Source of the DNA: Pyrinomonadaceae bacterium
Lineage (GTDB): Bacteria; Acidobacteriota; Blastocatellia; Pyrinomonadales; Pyrinomonadaceae
NCBI GenBank assembly: GCA_043740295.1
Contig: JAYUCO010000025.1
Location: 2,741 to 66,740 of the forward strand
Direction: 5' to 3'
Length of the DNA stretch: 64,000 bases
This document shows positions 6,547-61,873 of the stretch, piece by piece (within the stretch, counting starts at the first letter, position 1; the number at the start of each line of letters is the position of its first letter). The position numbers were made by a program, and so were the translations under genes. The notes beneath the pieces were generated by a model, which was not told the origin of the DNA, searched no databases, and was given only the letters and a program-made list of their open reading frames with translations.

Positions 6547-8046
6547 ATGAAAAAGAATCCACCGAAAACTGCTGCACAAAAAGAGAAACTGACGACACCT
6601 AAAACTGACGGGAAAAAAGTCAGTAAAGCCACGCTGAAGGCTGAGCAAAAGGCTTTCGTAAAAGCATGGGCAAAAAGACAGAAGTCGAGCCTTGCCTTCG
6701 CGGCGGCCGCAGGCATTGATCAGACCGTGGAAAACCTCTCAAAGATAGATCACATCGTGGTTTTGATGCTCGAAAATCGCTCATTCGATCACATGCTCGG
6801 TTATTTGAGCCTGGAAGGCATCCGCACCGATATCGATGGCTTGCAGAATACTATGTCGAACAAGGATTCGAATAATAACGCCATTCCGGTCTTTCACTTA
6901 AAACAAACGGCATTCACAGGCGGCGAAGACCCATGCCACGAATTTGACTGCGTGGACGAGCAGTTAACTGGCCCGAACGCCGGATTTGTTAAGAATTTTG
7001 AAAAACACCACCCGTCGAATAAGGGTCTGGTCATGGGCTACTATAACGCCACTGAAGTACCTGTTTTCGACCACCTGGCAAAGCATTTTGTTACATTCAA
7101 CCGTTGGTTTTCTTCTGTTCCGGCAGCTACGTGGCCGAATCGGCTCTATTCGATCACCGGCCGAGCTTCAGAGAAGAAAAGCAAGAAAGTTCCGATCTAT
7201 AATATTCCCTCGTTTGTCAGACACCTCGACGCAAATGATGTCTCATGGGGCTGGTTTAACCATAAAGGCGTAGGCACGCTTCGATTAGTCGATGGCCATT
7301 ATCGCATCGGTCACTTCGACAAATTTGCATATTTTGATAAACGTAAAAGCTTTACGTCCGGTCTTTTTGGCGATCTCAGTTTTATCGAACGGGCACAGCA
7401 GGGTTCTCTGCCTTCGGTTTCATGGATCGATCCCAATTTTATCAACGCGCCGGGTGGAAACGTTTCGACATCGAACGACGACCATCCTCCGTCAGATATA
7501 TTAAATGGCCAGTCACTCGTCCTTCAGCTTTACCGGGCTATTACAACCGGACCAAAGTGGGACAAAACACTGCTGATTGTTGCATATGATGAGCATGGCG
7601 GATTATTCGATCACGTCGAGCCGACGGCAGCGGAAGATGATAATCCGAATTTTATGAAATACGGCGTTCGCGTTCCGGCGTTTATCGTCTCTCCTTATGT
7701 CGAAGCCGGAGTCGTTAGTGATTTTGTTTTCGACCATACGTCGATAATCAAAACAATTTTGCTGCGGTTTTGTTTGGACGGCGTGATGTACCCGAATATG
7801 GGCAAACGTGTCAGCGCGGCAAACCATCTCGGTTCGTTCCTCACGAGTGACACACCGCGACAGCCTCCTTCGAGTTCAGGTGTTATTAATGCAGTTGCGT
7901 CGTGGAAAAAGGAAATCTTCAAGGACTCGCTAAGCCTCGGGGCTAGTTCTTTTTCGCCCCCACCGGAACCCAACGACCTGCATAAAGGGATTCTCGCGGC
8001 GAGCAAGAAAATTAAAGCTCAAGGCTTTCCAGAGGACCAGCCGTAA
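6547..8046 (+). CDS. phosphoesterase-family protein (phospholipase C / acid phosphatase AcpA type)
   Basis: Family motifs are present: VVLMLENRSFDHMLGY, AATWPNRLYS (Thr nucleophile context), NDDHPPSD and AYDEHGGLFDHV. The N-terminal 45 aa are Lys-rich, and no twin-arginine motif is present. Confidence 0.8.
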   Translation: MKKNPPKTAAQKEKLTTPKTDGKKVSKATLKAEQKAFVKAWAKRQKSSLAFAAAAGIDQTVENLSKIDHIVVLMLENRSFDHMLGYLSLEGIRTDIDGLQNTMSNKDSNNNAIPVFHLKQTAFTGGEDPCHEFDCVDEQLTGPNAGFVKNFEKHHPSNKGLVMGYYNATEVPVFDHLAKHFVTFNRWFSSVPAATWPNRLYSITGRASEKKSKKVPIYNIPSFVRHLDANDVSWGWFNHKGVGTLRLVDGHYRIGHFDKFAYFDKRKSFTSGLFGDLSFIERAQQGSLPSVSWIDPNFINAPGGNVSTSNDDHPPSDILNGQSLVLQLYRAITTGPKWDKTLLIVAYDEHGGLFDHVEPTAAEDDNPNFMKYGVRVPAFIVSPYVEAGVVSDFVFDHTSIIKTILLRFCLDGVMYPNMGKRVSAANHLGSFLTSDTPRQPPSSSGVINAVASWKKEIFKDSLSLGASSFSPPPEPNDLHKGILAASKKIKAQGFPEDQP

Positions 8047-54273: not shown

Positions 54274-56007
54274 TTATGTTTGTTTGCCTTCAAGAAATGC
54301 CTTGAGACGGCGTGAACGCGACGGATGCCGCAGTTTGCGTAATGCCTTTGCTTCGATCTGCCGGATACGTTCGCGAGTAACCGCAAAATGCTGTCCGACC
54401 TCTTCCAGCGTGTGCTCGGAACCTGTATTTCCAAGGCCAAACCGCATTTTGATCACTTTCTCCTCGCGCGGTGTAAGCGTCGCTAAAACTTCGTCCGTGA
54501 TCTCGCGGAGGTTTGAGAACGTCACAGATTCCGCCGGGTTAAGTATCGATTTATCCTCGATAAAATCTCCGAGATGCGAATCTTCCTCTTCACCGATCGG
54601 CGTTTCGAGCGAGATCGGTTCCTGAGCGATCTTCAAAACCTTCCGCACTTTCGAAACGGGAATATCCATTCGTTTTGCGATCTCTTCACTCGTTGGTTCA
54701 CGGCCAAGTTCCTGCACAAGCAGTCGTGATGTGCGGATAAGTTTATTGATCGTCTCGATCATATGGACTGGGATTCGTATAGTTCGTGCCTGATCGGCTA
54801 TGGCTCGCGTGATCGCCTGCCGAATCCACCACGTCGCGTAGGTCGAAAATTTATAGCCGCGCCGCCATTCGAATTTATCTACGGCCTTCATCAAACCGAT
54901 ATTGCCTTCCTGGATCAGATCAAGGAATTGCAGACCGCGATTTGTGTATTTTTTCGCGATCGAAACGACGAGACGGAGATTGGCTTCCACCAATTCACGT
55001 TTTGCGATGTTAGTTTCGTATTCCCCAACGCTGATCGTCTGGAACGAACGCTTGATCTCCACCGTGGGCAGGTGAAAACTTTCCTCTATCTCGGACAAAG
55101 ATTTTTTAGCCTCATTGATCTTGGCGTTAAGTTCTTTTTTCTCGGCTGCTTCAGGTTTTTGTTCAAGCCTTTCCTCGGCTCTTCTGATCGTTCTTTCAAA
55201 TTTGCGTATCTCTTCAACGACCTTACGGACCGAGGCGATCATCTTCTGCATCGAATTCTCGGTTAAATTAAGATTCTTGATCTCCTGCGCAATTTCCAGC
55301 CGTTGACGGGCCGTTTGCCTGGTCAAAGAAAGCAGTTTTTTGGATTTTTTCCCTTTGGTTGTCTTTTGTTCTTCGCGAAGAGCGATCCACACTTTAAGGG
55401 CGGCTTCGTAATTCTGACGAATGTTGCCGATGCCGTCGAGTGTCCATCGCAAATATTCTTCCGCCTTGTCTTCTTCAAGCGATATTTCAGCTTGTTCAGA
55501 AAATGCAACAGTCTCGCGAATGCTTGCCTTGCCCCTCGCCAGATCGTCACCGATCTTTATTAAACGTTCGACCGAGATAGGCGAACGTGAAATTGTCTTT
55601 CTCGTTTTGATCTGACCCCGTTCGATCCGTTTTGCGATGACGACTTCGCCTTCGCGAGTCAGAAGCGGAACGATGCCCATTTCACGCAAATAAAGACGGA
55701 CAGGGTCATTTGACTTATCTAAGGCCCCGGCCGAAAGGTCAAGGTCGATATCATCCTCTTCCTCCTCTGAAGCCGTCGGATCTTCATCCAGGGCCAGTTG
55801 CGATGCCCGCTCGAGAAGTTGCGAATCGGTCTCCGCTACCGAGATATTTGCACCTTCAAGACGGTCGAGAACGTCCTCAAGATCATCGGGAGACATCATG
55901 TTTTCCGGGATTTCTCTGTGCAGTTCGTCAAGACTTATGAATTTCTTTCGTTTCCCCAATGCGACCAACCGGTCCATCAGGTCTTCTTTTTCGTCGTAAT
56001 CAGCCAT
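54274..56007 (-). CDS. rpoD: primary RNA polymerase sigma factor (sigma-70)
   Basis: Region 2 reads [27 protein letters not shown]. Regions 3 and 4 and an acidic region 1 are also present. Confidence 0.95.
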
Positions 56008-56127
56008 ATTTTGTCCAGGATTTGGATTAAATCTTCGGGTAAATCGTTGTTCTTAAAAAACTATATTAACGTCCCGCGACAAGAAAATGTTTCCTGTCGG
56101 CCGGAATGTTTAAAAAAAGATATTATA

Positions 56128-58656
56128 TCAGTTATCTGCGATTTTTTTAAGTAGGGCACGCTTCAATCTTTCAAGATCAAGCTGTTCGGCTGAGAAATGG
56201 TTTACAAGATCGGTGTTGCCGCTCTGTTCCGCAGCGATCAATTCCTGGCTGATCTCCATGATCCGGTTCGAAATAGCCATTGATCGCAGCGTGAAAATGC
56301 AGTTTTCAGCATCGTGCAGGACTTCATCTATCACTTCTCCGGCTTCACGCTTTGGCTCCGTCATCAACAGTAATGGCACAAAATCACCTGCGGCCTCGTC
56401 ATCGCCCACAAGTTCCATCAAATTATCGTTCGACACCATTAACTTCTTTGACTGAAGTTCGTAAAGAGCTCGAAAGATCGGAGCGGTAGCGAGAGATTCG
56501 TAATCGGTCTCTTCGAGCTGGACAAGAATTTTTTCCTGAAGTTCGGGGTCGTAAACCAATAATTCCAAAAGATGCTGCTCGGCGACGGTCATTTTTACCT
56601 GCGTCACACGTTTGACCTGCTTTTTTAATGTTTCAGTTTCGACTTTATTACCGTGCTTCACCGCATTCCATAGCTCACGCTTGAGGCCGGAATCTTCGAT
56701 GCGGAAGAAGTTCATCGCCTGATCGAAACTTTCACGTTTTTGGACCGGATTTGCAGGTATGGTCAGAACGGGCAGCACATCCTCGATCGCATCGGCTTTT
56801 TGCCGGGCAACGTTCAGGTTACGGCCCGACATTGACGCTTCTAAAACGAACTGAAGATACGGCTGCGCCTTTCCTCTGGCATCATTATAACCATCGGCCC
56901 CATTTGCCCTAATAAAATCATCGGGGTCGTTTCCATCCGGTAATACAAGAACTTTAACGTCAAAATCTTCGGCTAAAAGTGCCTCGACCGCTTTACGTGC
57001 GGCCTTTACACCAGCGTTGTCGCCATCGTAATTTATAACGATTTTTTTCGCATAACGGCCAAGAAGTTTGGATTGCTCCGCTGTAAATGCCGTGCCGAGG
57101 CTTGCCGCCGTATTGGTTATCCCAAATTGGTAAAGCGCGATCAGATCGAGATAACCTTCGACGAGAATAACGAATTTCTTTTTTCGGATCTCTTCCTTCG
57201 CCTGAAACAAACCATAAAGATGCTGGCCTTTGATATACGCAGGCGTTTCGGGTGAATTGAGATATTTGGGCTGGTCGTCACCCATTGCACGGGCGCCGAA
57301 CGCGACCGGATTGCCGCTAACATCAAGCACCGGAAACATTATCCGTCCCCGAAAACGGTCAAAAACACGGTCTTTTTCTTCATTAATGGAAACAAGGCCG
57401 CTTTGTTCAATTAGTTTTTCGCCCGCCCTCATTTCCTTGAGACGATTTAACAGCGAATCCCACGTATCTGGTGCAAACCCGATGTGAAACGCTTTTTGCG
57501 TTTCCTGGGAAATGCCGCGTGTTTCCAGATATTCGCGTGCAGCCTTAGCTTTCTTGTCTTTGGATTGCAGTTCAGCTTCCCAATAATCGAGCGCGATGCG
57601 GTTCAATTCGATCACTTCGTCAGCGATCTTTTTCTTTTCTTCCTTTTTCTTTTTGCTTTGAGCGTATTGCTGATCGTCGATCGGTTCCGGCAGCGGAACG
57701 CCGGAGATCTCAGCGACCCGTTGAATTGCCTCGGGAAAATTCAAACCTTCCATTTCCATCAAAAATGTATAAGCATTTCCGCCCTTCCCGCACCCGAAAC
57801 ATTTATAAAAACCTTTCGTCGGCGAAACCGAAAACGAAGGCGTCTTTTCCTGATGAAACGGACAGCAGCCCATCCAGTTCGAACCCTTTTTCTTCAGCGG
57901 CGCATACGGTTCAATGATCCGCACAAGGTCCGCACGGTTTTTAAGATCGTCGATGAAGTACTCAGGGATACGCGAATTACTAAATTGCTTTCGCGGGACT
58001 TGCTCCCTGGCTACGGTGCGAATAGGTTTAGCTAATATTGAGGACTGGTCAAGCCCGCTATGACCGATGCCAGCAGGTTCGACCGACTTTTCGTTCTGCA
58101 AGCCACTGTCTTCTGCGACATGGTCAATCCAATGACTGGGTGATGTTGGGAATGGTGGCAAAACCCCCACCTTTTTAGGATTATTCTGCCTAGAAAATTC
58201 GTTAGCTAGGCACGTTACGACCTTCGTCGCAAGCTCCTCTTTACTGTCCCAATAGTCACAATATTTGCTCTCCTGAACCTTCTTTCGGAAACTCGCGAGC
58301 TTAGCCTTGCCATCTTCTGACGCCTCTAACTTTTCGCCCTTGAGCTTATTTGTATTTTTATGAAGAAAGGTAAAAATTGGCTTGCTCTTAGATAAAGCGT
58401 AGTCGTACTCTCGCTCCGTAAAGCTAACCCCATCTTTATCGACAGAGCCGTATCGTCCAGCGACCACAACCACATAGAAGTCACAGTCATCGATTTCTTC
58501 AGTAACTTCATGCCACTGCGTATTATTTGAAGCGGGAATTAGTTCCATTCCGGTAGGAACACACTTCAAACGTGAGATCGCGTCATAAAGATACTTTCGT
58601 TCTTTCTTTAGATCTTCGAAAGTAGAGCTGACAAAGATGTTGTATCTAGGTTTCAT
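56128..58656 (-). CDS. dnaG: DNA primase DnaG with an N-terminal DUF4062 (TIR-like) domain fusion
   Basis: The frame is continuous. The DnaG part starts at RIPEYFIDDLKNRADLVRII (nt 57972 downward) and includes the CHC2 zinc finger CCPFHQEKTPSF...YKCFGCGKGG. The N-terminal ~165 aa carry the DUF4062 signature. The ATG is at 58656, and the frame extends to a TTG at 58680. Confidence 0.8.
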   Translation of the reverse strand: MKPRYNIFVSSTFEDLKKERKYLYDAISRLKCVPTGMELIPASNNTQWHEVTEEIDDCDFYVVVVAGRYGSVDKDGVSFTEREYDYALSKSKPIFTFLHKNTNKLKGEKLEASEDGKAKLASFRKKVQESKYCDYWDSKEELATKVVTCLANEFSRQNNPKKVGVLPPFPTSPSHWIDHVAEDSGLQNEKSVEPAGIGHSGLDQSSILAKPIRTVAREQVPRKQFSNSRIPEYFIDDLKNRADLVRIIEPYAPLKKKGSNWMGCCPFHQEKTPSFSVSPTKGFYKCFGCGKGGNAYTFLMEMEGLNFPEAIQRVAEISGVPLPEPIDDQQYAQSKKKKEEKKKIADEVIELNRIALDYWEAELQSKDKKAKAAREYLETRGISQETQKAFHIGFAPDTWDSLLNRLKEMRAGEKLIEQSGLVSINEEKDRVFDRFRGRIMFPVLDVSGNPVAFGARAMGDDQPKYLNSPETPAYIKGQHLYGLFQAKEEIRKKKFVILVEGYLDLIALYQFGITNTAASLGTAFTAEQSKLLGRYAKKIVINYDGDNAGVKAARKAVEALLAEDFDVKVLVLPDGNDPDDFIRANGADGYNDARGKAQPYLQFVLEASMSGRNLNVARQKADAIEDVLPVLTIPANPVQKRESFDQAMNFFRIEDSGLKRELWNAVKHGNKVETETLKKQVKRVTQVKMTVAEQHLLELLVYDPELQEKILVQLEETDYESLATAPIFRALYELQSKKLMVSNDNLMELVGDDEAAGDFVPLLLMTEPKREAGEVIDEVLHDAENCIFTLRSMAISNRIMEISQELIAAEQSGNTDLVNHFSAEQLDLERLKRALLKKIADN
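58186..58650 (-). other. DUF4062-like domain segment of the dnaG ORF
   Basis: IFVSSTFEDLKKERKYLYDAISRL...DDCDFYVVVVAGRYGS...SFTEREYDYALSKSKPIFTFL includes the conserved SST motif. Hand-counted 60-nt blocks here are 35-50% GC, against 47-58% in two blocks of the primase core. Confidence 0.7.
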
Positions 58657-59089
58657 GCAAAGTCGGAAGATCACCTTCAATTATAAATCTCTCGAGGAAT
58701 TCTCCGGGCGAGTAAACCGGTTTCGGGGATTTTTCGAAATCAGAAGTGTCCCGTGTCACTATTGCGTCTAAACCTGCAATTATTGCGGAAGCACATTGAA
58801 CGGCGTCTTCATAGTCCGAAAATTCGAGGTCGAACGCGTTTTGAAGTACCTGTTTATCGGTGGTAACGATCTCAAATAGCCGGACCAGTCTGCGAACTTC
58901 TTTTAGCGAATGATCTTTACCCTTCAGTTTTCGGCCGGTGTAGTAGACGTTTATGGGTGTTATGCTCGACAGGTATCCAACTAAGTCTTCGGCCGCCACA
59001 AGCAATACGATCTTCTCGGCATCGGCATGAAAGGGTTGTCTTTCGAGTACATAATCCAGGATTACGTTGGTGTCAATGAGAACACGCAT
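58646..59089 (-). CDS. PIN-domain toxin (VapC-like ribonuclease)
   Basis: MRVLIDTNVILDY provides the first acidic residue. Further acidic residues lie at FSDYEDAVQ and VTRDTSDF. The start overlaps the upstream small ORF in an ATGA arrangement. Confidence 0.75.
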   Translation of the reverse strand: MRVLIDTNVILDYVLERQPFHADAEKIVLLVAAEDLVGYLSSITPINVYYTGRKLKGKDHSLKEVRRLVRLFEIVTTDKQVLQNAFDLEFSDYEDAVQCASAIIAGLDAIVTRDTSDFEKSPKPVYSPGEFLERFIIEGDLPTLHET

Positions 59090-59364
59090 CAGCGATACTT
59101 CTCCATAATGTGTTCGTAATAGATTTCCCGGTCTTCCTCTTTAGTCATTGGCATAAAGTCTTCTTCAGGCTTAAACGTGCCGGAAAGACTTTTCGCGAGG
59201 GCTATCCGTTCCTGTTTCGTAAGCTCTCGTTGAAATTTGTTCTCTTCTGGATATCCATTCTCCACAAACGCATTAAGGTTCTGAGAAACCTTTTCAATCA
59301 ATTCACGTTGGAGCGGTATCGGCAGTTTTGAAATCTCACGAATTAATTGCTTTTGCGATATCAT
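59089..59364 (-). CDS. putative antitoxin (DUF2281-like N-terminus)
   Basis: At 91 aa, its stop overlaps the PIN start by 4 bp. LIREISKLPIPLQRELIEKV resembles DUF2281-type antitoxins; this assignment is from memory. Confidence 0.55.
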   Translation of the reverse strand: MISQKQLIREISKLPIPLQRELIEKVSQNLNAFVENGYPEENKFQRELTKQERIALAKSLSGTFKPEEDFMPMTKEEDREIYYEHIMEKYR

Positions 59365-59380
59365 TTGAATACCTCCGAAA

Positions 59381-61873
59381 TTATTGTTTCAACTCAGCTA
59401 TTGTAGCACCATGCCCGCCCTGGTCTTGGGGGGCGAAGCTGAACTTTTCGATGTGAGGGTGGCCTTTTAGGAAATGGTGAACGAAATTCTTTAACGCACC
59501 GGTGCCGAAGCCGTGAATTATGCGGACGCGGGGCAGCGACGCCAGATAGGCCTCATCGAGAAAGCGGTCGATCTCGTATTCGGCGTCGGCGGTTGTCTGG
59601 CCGATCAGATTTAGCTCGGCGTTCATATCTTCGGTGTCGAGCCGTAGATTTGCCGATTGGGATTGAGATTGCAGCTTTTCCAATTTACCTTCGACTGAAA
59701 TTTGTTCTTCTGCGACAGTTTGCAGGTCTTTGATCTTTTCACGCAGACGCATTCCGCCGACCAGGACCTCGGCGACTTCCTTGTCCATTTTCTCGACGAC
59801 GCCTATGTTGCCGAAGGATGTATAGACTCTTGAGCCAACTGCAATCGCCGTAGTTCCTAGAGACAAATCCGACAAAGTCCCTAACGGGCGTGTTTCTCCC
59901 TGCCAGATTACGCCGACTTTGGACTTTGGGTTTTTGACTTTGGACAATACCGCCCGGTTTAGTTCGGCTTTACGGGTATCGCGTTCCTTGTCGAGTTTGT
60001 TTCGCAGGGCCTTGTCCTCGATGGATTTGATAAACGCTTTGGACTGCCTTTCGAAGTCATCAATTGTTTGGGCAAGTTCGTTTTGGAATAGCTTTTGGCG
60101 TTCTTTTTCTTTCTTTATTGCTTCGATATCCAGGCTGGCGTATTTCATCGCTACTGCTTCGCGTTCTTCTTCTAAAGCAACTCGCAGGTCTTCGGCCAGT
60201 GTCGATTCGGTTTGCAGTTTTCGCAGATAATCCTCAGCTTTCTTAGCGGAGATATCCAGATTGAGGCGTGAATTATCGATAACATCGGGTAAAATCCCGA
60301 AACGTCGTGCGATCTCAATGCCAGACGAGGCACCAGCTATCCCGATCAGAAGACGGTATGTCGGCTGCAGGGTTTTCTCGTTGAATTCGACGGATGCGTT
60401 AATCACATTTTCGTCATTCGCCGCATAAATTTTAAGCCCGCGGTAATGTGTCGAAGCGATAACTTGGGCGCCGCAGCTTCGCCTGAAATGATCGACGATC
60501 GCCACTCCAAGAGCCGAACCTTCTTCGGGATCGGTGCCGGTACCGACTTCGTCAAGCAATACCAGCGAAGGAGATTGGCAATGTTCCATCATCCGGGCAA
60601 TATTCGACATGTGCGATGAAAATGTCGAAAGGTTTGCCGCCAGCGATTGATGATCGCCGATGTCTGCTAGAACAGATCTATAAAAGGGAATCTTAGCGGC
60701 GGCGGCCGGAACGGGAAGGCCGGAGAGGGCCATTAAAGAAAGCAGCCCGGCAGTTTTCATTACAACGGTTTTCCCGCCGGCATTTGCACCCGAAATTATC
60801 ATCACGCCATTGTCTTTAGTTAATTTGAAACTTACAGGTACTATTTCGTTCGATGGCAGGGAAACGCTCACTACCGGTCGTGTTTCCGCCTTCTTCACAT
60901 CCGCGTCTCGGCGTCTTGGCGGTGGAGCATCCCGCAGATTTTCTTCGAGCAATGGGTGACGGGCATCAACAAGATCGAGCGTTTCGTCCGCGGATATTTC
61001 CGGCACAATGGCATTAAACTTTTTGCCGAATTCAACTTTGGCCTTTATAAAGTCAAGTTCCGCAACCGCTTCGACCGATACTTCTATGGCGGGAAGCTGC
61101 TCACGCAATTCTTCGGTCAGTGCAAACAGGATCCTGGCGATCTCGCGTTCTTCCTTGCCTTTGAGGTTTTGTAGTTCGTTATTGGCTTCTATGGCTTCGA
61201 GCGGCTCGATGAAAACTGTCGCTCCGGATGAAGAAAAACCATGAGCAACACCACCGACCTTACCGCGAAAATCCGATTTTACAGGAATGACAAAACGTTC
61301 GTTGCGAACGGTTACGATCTCGTCCTGGATAGCATTTCCCGAATTTCGCATTACGGCTTCCAGCGACTTGGTCAAACGCCCACGCTGCGAACTTATCTCT
61401 CGTCGAATTTTTGCTAATTCCGGGGATGCAGAATCGTCAATTTCGCCGCCCGGCAGCAGTTTTTTATTGATCTTTTCAATCGCGGCAAGCAATCCCGGCG
61501 AAATATTCTCAACGATCCGCCATAACGTCGGGGCAAGATCTTTTTCAGGCTGTATCGAAGACCTTGCAAACAAAGCCTGACTGCAGACCCGTGAAACTTC
61601 GAGCAGCAGATTCGGTTCCAGGGTCGCATTTTTGATCTTCAGGATCGCGACCGCATCGCTCGGGTCCTGCAATCCGCTGAACGACCACGAAACCTGTTTT
61701 TCTTCCTTGAGTACAATAGTTTCAGAGATCGCAGCCAGATCGCGTTCGACTTCAATTTTGCTCGTTTTTGGGCGCAATATCGCAAACCGCTCTTCGCCCA
61801 TCGGCGTTTGAGCATTTCTGCTGACCAGCTCAAGCAGCTTTTCGTATTCTAATGTTTCAAGCGAAAAGTTCAT
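59381..61873 (-). CDS. mutS2: endonuclease MutS2 (MutS family ATPase with a C-terminal Smr domain)
   Basis: The Walker A motif is GANAGGKTV and the Walker B is LLDEVGTGTDP. A coiled coil is followed by a Smr domain (IGQTTADAEYEIDRFLD...IIHGFGTGALK). Confidence 0.9.
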   Translation of the reverse strand: MNFSLETLEYEKLLELVSRNAQTPMGEERFAILRPKTSKIEVERDLAAISETIVLKEEKQVSWSFSGLQDPSDAVAILKIKNATLEPNLLLEVSRVCSQALFARSSIQPEKDLAPTLWRIVENISPGLLAAIEKINKKLLPGGEIDDSASPELAKIRREISSQRGRLTKSLEAVMRNSGNAIQDEIVTVRNERFVIPVKSDFRGKVGGVAHGFSSSGATVFIEPLEAIEANNELQNLKGKEEREIARILFALTEELREQLPAIEVSVEAVAELDFIKAKVEFGKKFNAIVPEISADETLDLVDARHPLLEENLRDAPPPRRRDADVKKAETRPVVSVSLPSNEIVPVSFKLTKDNGVMIISGANAGGKTVVMKTAGLLSLMALSGLPVPAAAAKIPFYRSVLADIGDHQSLAANLSTFSSHMSNIARMMEHCQSPSLVLLDEVGTGTDPEEGSALGVAIVDHFRRSCGAQVIASTHYRGLKIYAANDENVINASVEFNEKTLQPTYRLLIGIAGASSGIEIARRFGILPDVIDNSRLNLDISAKKAEDYLRKLQTESTLAEDLRVALEEEREAVAMKYASLDIEAIKKEKERQKLFQNELAQTIDDFERQSKAFIKSIEDKALRNKLDKERDTRKAELNRAVLSKVKNPKSKVGVIWQGETRPLGTLSDLSLGTTAIAVGSRVYTSFGNIGVVEKMDKEVAEVLVGGMRLREKIKDLQTVAEEQISVEGKLEKLQSQSQSANLRLDTEDMNAELNLIGQTTADAEYEIDRFLDEAYLASLPRVRIIHGFGTGALKNFVHHFLKGHPHIEKFSFAPQDQGGHGATIAELKQ

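Follow-up and report, generated by a model that had tools for sequence, protein, structure and literature searches.

A DUF4062/NIR TIR-like domain fused in frame to the primase DnaG in Pyrinomonadaceae

Introduction

How does a domain known as an immune effector come to be joined to the enzyme that primes replication, and what might it do there? This question is raised by a locus in a 64,000-nucleotide (nt) stretch of DNA from a Pyrinomonadaceae bacterium (contig JAYUCO010000025.1; the whole stretch is referred to here as the window), in which one minus-strand open reading frame encodes a DUF4062 head, a linker and the primase DnaG. DUF4062, now renamed NIR, is a TIR-like NADase (10.64898/2026.05.01.722283, 10.64898/2026.09.04.749371, 10.64898/2026.06.25.731849) and, according to these 2026 preprints, constitutes the effector of the Swarozyc, Avs2, Vulcan, Vesta and Evangelion systems and of human TEP1. 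Hydrolysis of NAD+, yielding ADP-ribose along with nicotinamide, has been demonstrated solely in KpSwz, PsAvs2, Vulcan, Vesta and TEP1, and the catalytic glutamate of the family corresponds to E97 in KpSwz, E108 in PsAvs2 and the E87-Y88 pair in Eva01. The NADase is activated by assembly on a trigger, and the activity of the isolated TEP1 domain is concentration-dependent (10.64898/2026.05.01.722283). The fusion had first been noticed in an original prediction made from the DNA letters alone, which described DUF4062 as a domain of conflict and immunity systems; the preprints bear this out by showing NADase effectors of defence systems. In this study, we aimed to establish whether the fusion is real, where it occurs and which functions are compatible with its sequence.

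Results

A single open reading frame joins the DUF4062 head to DnaG

The minus-strand frame at 56128..58680 is open without interruption and specifies 850 amino acids (aa) if counted from a TTG codon. The true start is almost certainly the ATG at 58656, yielding a protein of 842 aa that begins MKPRYNIFVSS, because the N-termini of homologues (MEIRHNVF, MESRPNAF and MANIPSVF) and the public gene calls agree on this position. The resulting protein (P0001) is called identically on three public contigs, and its ATG overlaps the stop codon of the upstream PIN gene (ATGAAACCTAG). Pfam, NCBIfam and the single open reading frame concur in placing a DUF4062 domain in frame with the DnaG that is conserved at this locus, so that the description given in the original prediction stands, while its residue numbers are 8 too high since translation almost certainly starts at 58656. 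As translated, the frame is shown to specify one polypeptide consisting of a DUF4062/NIR TIR-like head of catalytically intact appearance, a disordered tether of approximately 70 aa and the locus-conserved replicative primase. That this represents a real translational fusion is, in our judgement, highly probable.

The head is assigned to the Swarozyc lineage by profile, fold and catalytic residues

The N-terminal region matches Pfam DUF4062 (PF13271) at aa 7–87, across profile positions 2–82 of 82, at 94.8 bits (cut-off 24.7; E=3.5e-27), which answers in the affirmative the profile search that had been suggested as a check. By phmmer, aa 3–148 of the head align with residues 4–149 of the KpSwz chain (PDB 10wc_A; E=4.4e-32), and E83 of the head falls on KpSwz E97, the position mutated (E97A) in PDB 10wc; the predicted catalytic glutamate, for which the original prediction had advised a search, is therefore present. 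The closest database relatives of the head are stand-alone proteins of 330–390 aa that are 45–50% identical to it over their first approximately 160 aa, and because a profile built from these relatives matches KpSwz over its whole length (E=9e-103), the head is, on profile evidence, a member of the Swarozyc lineage.

The residues that are invariant in an alignment of 59 heads (M37, E38, D59, R68, Y69, G70 and E83) are all retained, and at the 30 positions which are at least 90% conserved in the stand-alone relatives the four fused heads found (see below) match in 109 of 120 cells. Additionally, the family motifs F8, SST, Q47/W48/E50, GRYG and E83-Y84 are present. The AlphaFold2 (AF2) model of aa 1–160 has a predicted local distance difference test score (pLDDT) above 90 and displays a five-stranded parallel sheet alternating with five helices; its top Foldseek matches in the PDB are the TIR domains of RPP1, AbTir, RPS4 and SARM1 together with DNPH1 and nucleoside deoxyribosyltransferase (NDT), all with a probability of 1.00, and the TIR domain of SPARTA was matched as well, in accordance with the relationship between DUF4062 and the TIR and NDT folds that had been proposed previously. 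By profile, catalytic glutamate and fold the head is thus a DUF4062/NIR domain for which NADase activity is predicted, and it is likely to be a competent NADase. No NTPase or repeat domain was identified in Pfam, NCBIfam or PADLOC scans of the window protein; the PADLOC 2023 scan, for which no DUF4062 model exists, matched only the DnaG-like parts of DRT systems. Swz-like DUF4062 heads also occur with other partners (P0131, P0132, P0257, P0269, P0185 and similar), namely DisA_N (diadenylate cyclase), CYTH, leucine-rich repeats and an unannotated N-terminal extension of approximately 230 aa.

The fused protein departs from the described DUF4062 systems

Swarozyc (KpSwz; Osinski et al. 2026, 10.64898/2026.05.01.722283; PDB 10wc/11cq/11cv), a single-gene DUF4062 anti-phage NADase, possesses a homologous head with the same five-strand, five-helix fold. 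Unlike Swarozyc, the fused protein is without the GWVR intertwining strand, the helical stalk and the helix-turn-helix (HTH)/winged AUX domain that binds the phage portal; instead, the head is followed by a disordered linker and a complete DnaG, and the gene appears to reside in a housekeeping operon rather than a defence island. PsAvs2, Vulcan and Vesta (Le Mouellic et al. 2026, 10.64898/2026.09.04.749371) obey the same grammar, with an N-terminal NIR effector that carries the conserved glutamate and a C-terminal sensor or activation module. This module is, however, a dedicated sensor in those systems (STAND-TPR, HEAT repeats or a small ligand-binding domain), whereas in the fused protein it is an essential replication enzyme. 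Evangelion (Eva01; Ibarra-Chavez et al. 2026, 10.64898/2026.06.25.731849), a plasmid-borne combination of DUF4062 and AUX, shares with the head an N-terminal aromatic residue, a Q/W/E motif and an E-Y pair (F8, Q47-W48-x-E50 and E83-Y84 in the head), and homologues on S. aureus plasmids are approximately 36% identical to it. Eva01 moves on plasmids and uses an AUX region of its own for sensing, whereas the fused protein is chromosomal and joined to the host primase. Judged by its domain content, the fused protein lacks the sensor and stalk modules that define Swarozyc, Avs and Evangelion and hence belongs to none of these systems. The parts that usually confer autoinhibition and sensing have been lost. 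A primase fusion is not described in the 2026 DUF4062 preprints nor in one supplement, and literature searches (DnaG with NADase; Pyrinomonadaceae with primase) returned no description of the architecture; here a known effector is paired, in an unprecedented manner, with an enzyme that is essential to the replisome.

The primase part is predicted to be a complete DnaG

The NCBIfam dnaG profile TIGR01391 matches aa 229–646 with 450.3 bits against a cut-off of 283.6, covering profile positions 1–409 of 414, and Pfam identifies Zn_ribbon_DnaG at aa 231–322, DNAG_N at aa 365–487 and Toprim at aa 496–588, the models PF01807, PF08275 and PF13155 being matched full-length in the window protein. The catalytic and metal-binding motifs are intact in each of the four fused proteins, with CCPFH at 264, CFGCG at 286, EGYLD at 500 and DGDNAG at 544. 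With 614 aa, the primase part is collinear with the 615-aa DnaGs of the family, and it is 85–87% identical to its nearest non-fused orthologues. When compared to canonical DnaG (TIGR01391), it is likewise collinear, with the zinc ribbon and Toprim motifs intact and rpoD immediately downstream, and differs by an N-terminal extension of 228 aa. A weak DnaB-N-like match was obtained with Pfam at aa 690–750, and aa 647–842 are presumed to form the DnaB-interaction domain. The identity of the fused cores to outgroups lies within 1–3 points of that of their non-fused sisters, indicating the same evolutionary rate. On these comparisons the primase part is a bona fide, complete DnaG with predicted primase activity, and tblastn revealed no second dnaG within the 64-kb window. 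Among other DnaG proteins that were encountered, P0214 (1028 aa, from the search of representatives) is internally duplicated, with two zinc-ribbon and two DNAG_N stretches, and locus L055 (Rubrobacter) carries a DnaG frame of approximately 1039 aa.

The linker sequence drifts while its reading frame is maintained

The linker has a pLDDT of approximately 25–55, and residues 161–232 are disordered in the AF2 model. Across the four fused lineages, identity amounts to 45–67% in the head, 19–30% in the linker and 65–78% in the primase core. As synonymous sites are saturated, dN/dS is not properly computable and contrasts in nonsynonymous divergence (pN) were used instead; among the four lineages pN is 0.18–0.37 in the head, 0.58–0.66 in the linker and 0.14–0.23 in the primase core. 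Since its pN is far below that of the linker, the head is, by this measure, under purifying selection, whereas the sequence of the linker appears nearly free. A full-length AF2 model, based on an alignment of 11 sequences, was poor (mean pLDDT 61, predicted template modelling score 0.34) and holds no information on docking between head and primase.

The linker contains no in-frame stop codon in any of the four lineages, while the other frames of the same stretch hold 2–8 stops and shuffled linkers remain open with a probability of only 0.03–0.07 per gene. Because a non-conserved linker is open in all four lineages and its shuffles rarely are, the continuity of the frame through it has evidently been selected. 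The original prediction had seen no start codon in the 36 codons ahead of RIPEY, and this holds more widely: ATG, GTG and TTG are absent from the 46, 37, 14 and 61 codons preceding the junction in the four genes, respectively, the first of these being the window gene. The nearest possible internal starts in the window linker are V163, L166 and L186; none of the possible internal starts in the four genes is conserved or preceded by a Shine-Dalgarno (SD) sequence, and no promoter-like site was found in the linker. An internal start giving rise to a normal DnaG was rejected on these grounds, and both a conserved internal start and a sequencing artefact are effectively excluded.

The head is more AT-rich than the primase, as had been estimated from a few blocks counted by hand, with a GC content of 0.428 versus 0.476 in the window and a difference in the same direction in all four fused genes; at third codon positions the head has a GC content of 0.36–0.53 versus 0.51–0.63 in the core in all four genes, despite saturated synonymous divergence. 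The beginning of the linker, NNPKKVGVL (window 58150–58180, aa 158–168), faintly resembles the NPRVGWVR sequence conserved in Swz-type proteins, a likeness which suggests that the linker may be a decayed stalk.

The fusion occurs in four lineages at one syntenic position

Among thousands of DnaGs of the family Pyrinomonadaceae, the fused architecture (835–844 aa) was found in four clusters defined at 90% identity: P0001 (the window protein), P0002, P0007 (with variant P0325) and P0008, represented by 3, 7, 9 and 1 contigs, respectively, which derive from different samples and assemblers. Two of the fused proteins, HQZ98252.1 and MBK6590325.1, are encoded on contigs over 1 Mb. The fused gene lies between mutS2 and rpoD in every instance, and synteny extends to all loci, fused or not, in the order mutS2, variable slot, dnaG and rpoD. 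An assembly or sequencing error was rejected, as the exact protein recurs on multiple independent contigs (ENA, JGI, NCBI and Logan) and the architecture in four divergent lineages.

A profile of the fused proteins retrieved no fused clusters beyond these four, and a phmmer search with aa 1–330 against 1.84 billion representatives at 50% identity returned no further fused representative. Similarly, a scan of GTDB genomes yielded only non-fused forms among the loci listed, the fusion being absent from approximately 25 GTDB species representatives; a metagenome scan with the head alignment yielded, among the matches listed, at least 80 stand-alone heads of 40–52% identity, none of them beside dnaG; and phage and plasmid collections contained stand-alone DUF4062 genes only, with no primase fusion. 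Thus the question of whether dnaG orthologues share the extension, also posed with the original prediction, receives a divided answer: it is present in four Pyrinomonadaceae clusters and missing from the other DnaGs of the family that were compared, close relatives included.

P0327, a partial protein of 508 aa on a 2.4-kb ENA contig, matches P0007 exactly in the head and linker and over approximately 45 residues at the start of the zinc ribbon, and clearly diverges thereafter; either it is a natural recombinant in which the fused 5' module is joined to a different dnaG core, or the assembly is chimeric.

Junction and tree topology point to a single, old fusion

In a tree of the DnaG core, the fused proteins occupy three places, each nested among non-fused orthologues: P0001 stands beside P0003 (87% identical), P0002 among sequences of approximately 90% identity, and the nearest relatives of P0007 (94–95% identical) are non-fused. 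Non-fused members of the family, including the approximately 25 listed GTDB species representatives, start with [MV]LY[DEP]Q[YF]FI, and at the DNA level fused and non-fused alleles are homologous exactly from the P-Q-Y-F codons onward. The ancestral dnaG start region has become sense codons in the fused genes (..SRIPEYF). The possibility that the 'RIP' of the junction is a retained ancestral DnaG N-terminus was rejected, as MLY[DEP]Q opens even the most distant family members and fused and non-fused alleles have the P-Q-Y-F codons in common.

Among Swz-like heads, the four fused ones group into one clade whose branching mirrors that of the core tree (neighbour-joining, without bootstrap), and three of the four fused lineages have the S-R-I-P junction in common. 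Furthermore, a promoter-like motif, TTCGT..(N)..CGCGCTA[A/C/T]AAT, precedes the fused ATG (at 8001) in three lineages, at approximately L001:7940-7975, L004:7940-7975 and L009:7955-7985. This motif is absent from the intergenic regions of the non-fused loci L057 and L139, and in the window it is displaced by the overlapping PIN gene. Independent convergent fusions are disfavoured by the single head clade, the S-R-I-P junction and the upstream motif. From these sequence patterns we infer that the fusion was a single, old event and that fused and plain alleles have long coexisted, being exchanged or replaced by homologous recombination with mutS2 and dnaG as arms.

The mutS2-dnaG slot is a hotspot for toxin-antitoxin cassettes

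Among the loci compared (which include L010-L033, L057 and L139), the spacing between mutS2 and dnaG ranges from 18 bp (L018) to 2.1 kb (L004). The slot is occupied by a signal-peptide protein of approximately 225–257 aa (12 loci), UPF0175/DUF3368, an 86–91-aa protein with PIN_3, PIN_12 or an IS200/Y1-like transposase (L016:2491-2943), and several of the slot toxin genes end 0–4 nt ahead of the dnaG start codon. Three toxin-antitoxin families are represented there in related genomes, and the slot is clearly a hotspot for such cassettes.

In the window, the minus-strand order is mutS2, a gene for a 91-aa protein, the PIN_3 toxin gene, the fused gene and rpoD (Table 1). The PIN_3 toxin is 48% identical to the PIN_3 protein encoded upstream of fused P0002; the 91-aa putative antitoxin, which gave no match in Pfam and NCBIfam scans, shares 31% identity with its counterpart in L001 and is also related to the one in L023. 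The same PIN_3 module adjoins a non-fused dnaG in L023, while of two other fused loci L009 has no toxin-antitoxin module and L004 a different one. The original prediction had envisaged a recent acquisition of the head together with the adjacent PIN module; this is rejected because the fusion spans four lineages with saturated synonymous divergence, with heads only 45–67% identical, while the PIN module is missing from fused loci such as L009 and present beside a non-fused dnaG.

Two loci bear direct traces of turnover. At L007:7128-7301, a degenerate copy of the first approximately 45 codons of non-fused dnaG (MLYDQNFIDDLKPGFNLVRIVEHYAAIKKKSSNWMDCCPFHLAKAP) lies on the left side of a UPF0175-DUF3368 toxin-antitoxin cassette, which in turn borders the intact dnaG; this fragment is the footprint of a cassette insertion with dnaG as homology arm. 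Between an orphan UPF0175 antitoxin gene (the DUF3368 toxin is missing) and the fused dnaG, L004:7764-7900 holds a degenerate copy of the last approximately 46 mutS2 codons that contains a frameshift and a stop, and this copy is closer to mutS2 of L057 than to the 3' end of L004's own mutS2. In the non-fused spacer L139:7706-8000, a direct repeat of approximately 33 nt is present in two copies (GCGCGCGTCGAGGTG[C/G]TGGGACA[C/T]GGGACAAGAT). Finally, a promoter-like site on the minus strand of the window at 56122-56150 (TTAAAA-17-TATAAT with an upstream TG) spans the dnaG stop codon (56128-56130) approximately 115 nt before the rpoD start; it is probably the rpoD promoter, although the promoter scan overall was not above chance.

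Table 1. Coordinates of the fused gene, its parts and its neighbours in the window.
Feature	Position	Strand	Basis or remark
Fused gene: NIR/DUF4062 head, linker and DnaG	56128..58656	-	842 aa plus stop; open reading frame, Pfam, NCBIfam
DUF4062/NIR TIR-like head, assigned to Swarozyc lineage, aa 1-160	58177..58656	-	PF13271, AF2, Foldseek, phmmer
Codon GAG for E83, predicted catalytic glutamate (TEREYDYA)	58408..58410	-	59-head alignment; KpSwz E97
Linker, aa 161-228, disordered, rich in P/S/T, poorly conserved	57973..58176	-	low pLDDT
DnaG primase core, aa 229-646	56719..57972	-	TIGR01391, Pfam, intact motifs
C-terminal helical region of DnaG, aa 647-842	56131..56718	-	collinear with 615-aa non-fused orthologues
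PIN_3 (VapC-like) toxin gene	58646..59089	-	PF13470, E=1.7e-20; stop inside codons 3-4 of fused gene
91-aa putative antitoxin partner of PIN_3	59089..59364	-	position; 4-nt overlap with PIN gene
mutS2, conserved left flank of variable slot	59381..61873	-	open reading frame; MutS_V and Smr domains in syntenic loci
rpoD, conserved right neighbour	54274..56007	-	NF004208 RpoD equivalog, 671 bits against cut-off of 555

Discussion

As to its origin, a Swarozyc-type defence gene with its own promoter may have inserted into the mutS2-dnaG slot, a frequent site of toxin-antitoxin and defence cassettes, and, once deprived of its stalk and AUX sensor, come to be read through in frame into dnaG codons 2–4; the fusion would have arisen once and would persist as a rare allele in a few soil Acidobacteria of the Pyrinomonadaceae. 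As to its function, the primase would take the place of the sensor in the NIR grammar of N-terminal effector and C-terminal sensor or assembly module. The mechanism considered here derives from known NIR systems, in which the C-terminal module decides when the NADase assembles, and such systems can be wired to replication cues, since Evangelion responds to, and depends on, phage recombination and replication functions (10.64898/2026.06.25.731849). At low primase copy number, heads on flexible linkers of approximately 70 aa would be dilute, monomeric and inactive. DnaG is scarce, and up to three copies sit on the DnaB hexamer in the E. coli and Geobacillus replisomes. Heads might then become clustered either by massive recruitment of primase to DnaB hexamers on replicating phage DNA or by a phage protein that binds DnaG and thereby captures primases, whereupon the clustered heads would hydrolyse NAD+ and cause growth arrest or aborted infection. 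A defence or abortive-infection role with the primase as trigger scaffold, taken as this full mechanism, is the best explanation that analogy offers, though we would put it somewhat short of an even chance. The proposal of a 'guard in cis', an abortive-infection system in a single polypeptide with the primase as its sensing and assembly arm and a tethered NIR NADase that abnormal clustering or capture of DnaG would activate, with a collapse of NAD+, is offered tentatively and must be considered doubtful; the clustering could come from phage replication forks, phage helicase loaders or anti-primase proteins.

A number of observations weigh against such a defence role. The GWVR strand is absent from all four fused proteins, the GW motif being at least 90% conserved in stand-alone relatives; no coiled-coil stalk was found after the head, where disorder is predicted; and no HTH/winged AUX domain was found, the match to KpSwz ending at chain residue 149 and DnaG following, while KpSwz requires its AUX domain for defence (10.64898/2026.05.01.722283). 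In addition, no fused-specific substitutions were found in the DnaG core when compared to non-fused orthologues, and there is therefore no sign of co-adaptation; the allele is rare, with four clusters among the thousands of family DnaGs; and apart from the toxin-antitoxin modules of the slot the neighbourhood appears to be of a housekeeping nature rather than a defence island. Finally, primase is a low-copy protein, and its capacity to deplete NAD+ may consequently be small. The loss of stalk, GWVR strand and AUX, the dependence of KpSwz on AUX, the rarity of the allele and the unaltered DnaG would equally suit a history in which a Swz-like gene decayed beside dnaG, its head became attached by a read-through deletion and is inert without stalk and AUX, persisting since its precise removal endangers dnaG expression or since it is nearly neutral. 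Such a welded remnant is also in keeping with the repeated, messy cassette turnover in the slot, with its dnaG and mutS2 pseudo-fragments, and with a linker start that faintly recalls the Swz sequence, as a decayed stalk would. However, a neutral head should decay in the manner of the linker, yet its pN is far lower, and the invariant and catalytic residues are all kept across lineages with saturated synonymous divergence; nor is the head trapped, as the non-fused alleles of close relatives evidently replace the fused one by recombination. The remnant explanation is, on this evidence, unlikely.

A different role, in which the head acts locally at the replisome in NAD-linked control of priming rather than in immunity, would have it destroy or sense NAD(H) so that no primer is begun with NAD-type non-canonical nucleotides, convert NAD-capped primers or make replication depend on NAD+ status. 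In vitro, E. coli DnaG is able to initiate primers with NADH and FAD, with altered primer processing (PMC7367122), the head is tethered beside the zinc-ribbon and active-site end of the primase, and the gene, positioned in a housekeeping operon, has a conserved promoter-like motif of its own. Nevertheless, the fusion is patchy and rare among close relatives, a pattern that marks accessory or defence genes and not an improvement in replication, the head is related most closely to stand-alone proteins of the Swarozyc type and to DUF4062 genes on plasmids, approximately 20% of DUF4062/NIR genes lie near known defence genes versus 3.9% expected by chance (2026 DUF4062 preprints), and the DUF4062 family is without known activity on capped RNA, which together render this role quite unlikely. 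It is also very improbable that two proteins arise from the one frame, with a normal-size DnaG produced by non-canonical internal initiation or by proteolysis of the linker: the linker is long, disordered and accessible to proteases, and in the window it contains a weak SD-like AGGGAG, but neither start codons near the junction, a conserved or SD-preceded start further upstream nor a promoter-like site is available, and re-initiation from a separate transcript would not need the frame that is kept through a non-conserved linker in all four lineages; release by proteolysis would still be compatible with the sequence. A stop or frameshift between a separate DUF4062 gene and dnaG that was masked by faulty assembly or sequencing might be entertained since all sequences are metagenome-assembled and the partial contig of P0327 looks mosaic; against this stand the exact recurrence of P0001, P0002 and P0007 on 3, 7 and 9 contigs from the assemblies named above and the continuous frame in four divergent lineages, such that the chance of an artefact is minute.

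It was only in 2026 that DUF4062/NIR came to be recognised as an immune effector that depletes NAD+, and all versions described are paired with a dedicated sensor, while here an essential housekeeping enzyme occupies the sensor position and selection has kept both the fusion and the catalytic residues. The fusion is surprising for specialists in defence systems and in replication alike, with the qualification that its function is predicted only and the allele is rare. Should the head be active, the protein would be either an immune device that monitors the replisome directly or a direct biochemical connection of NAD+ with primer synthesis, both of which would be new to biology; the 'guard in cis' proposal, if true, would make it the first case in which an essential enzyme of the replisome is hard-wired to a suicide effector, an arrangement comparable with the integrated decoys of plant nucleotide-binding leucine-rich repeat receptors (NLRs). 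The locus itself is a clear natural example of the turnover of defence and toxin-antitoxin cassettes between two conserved core genes, and it illustrates how one such cassette can become welded to an essential gene.

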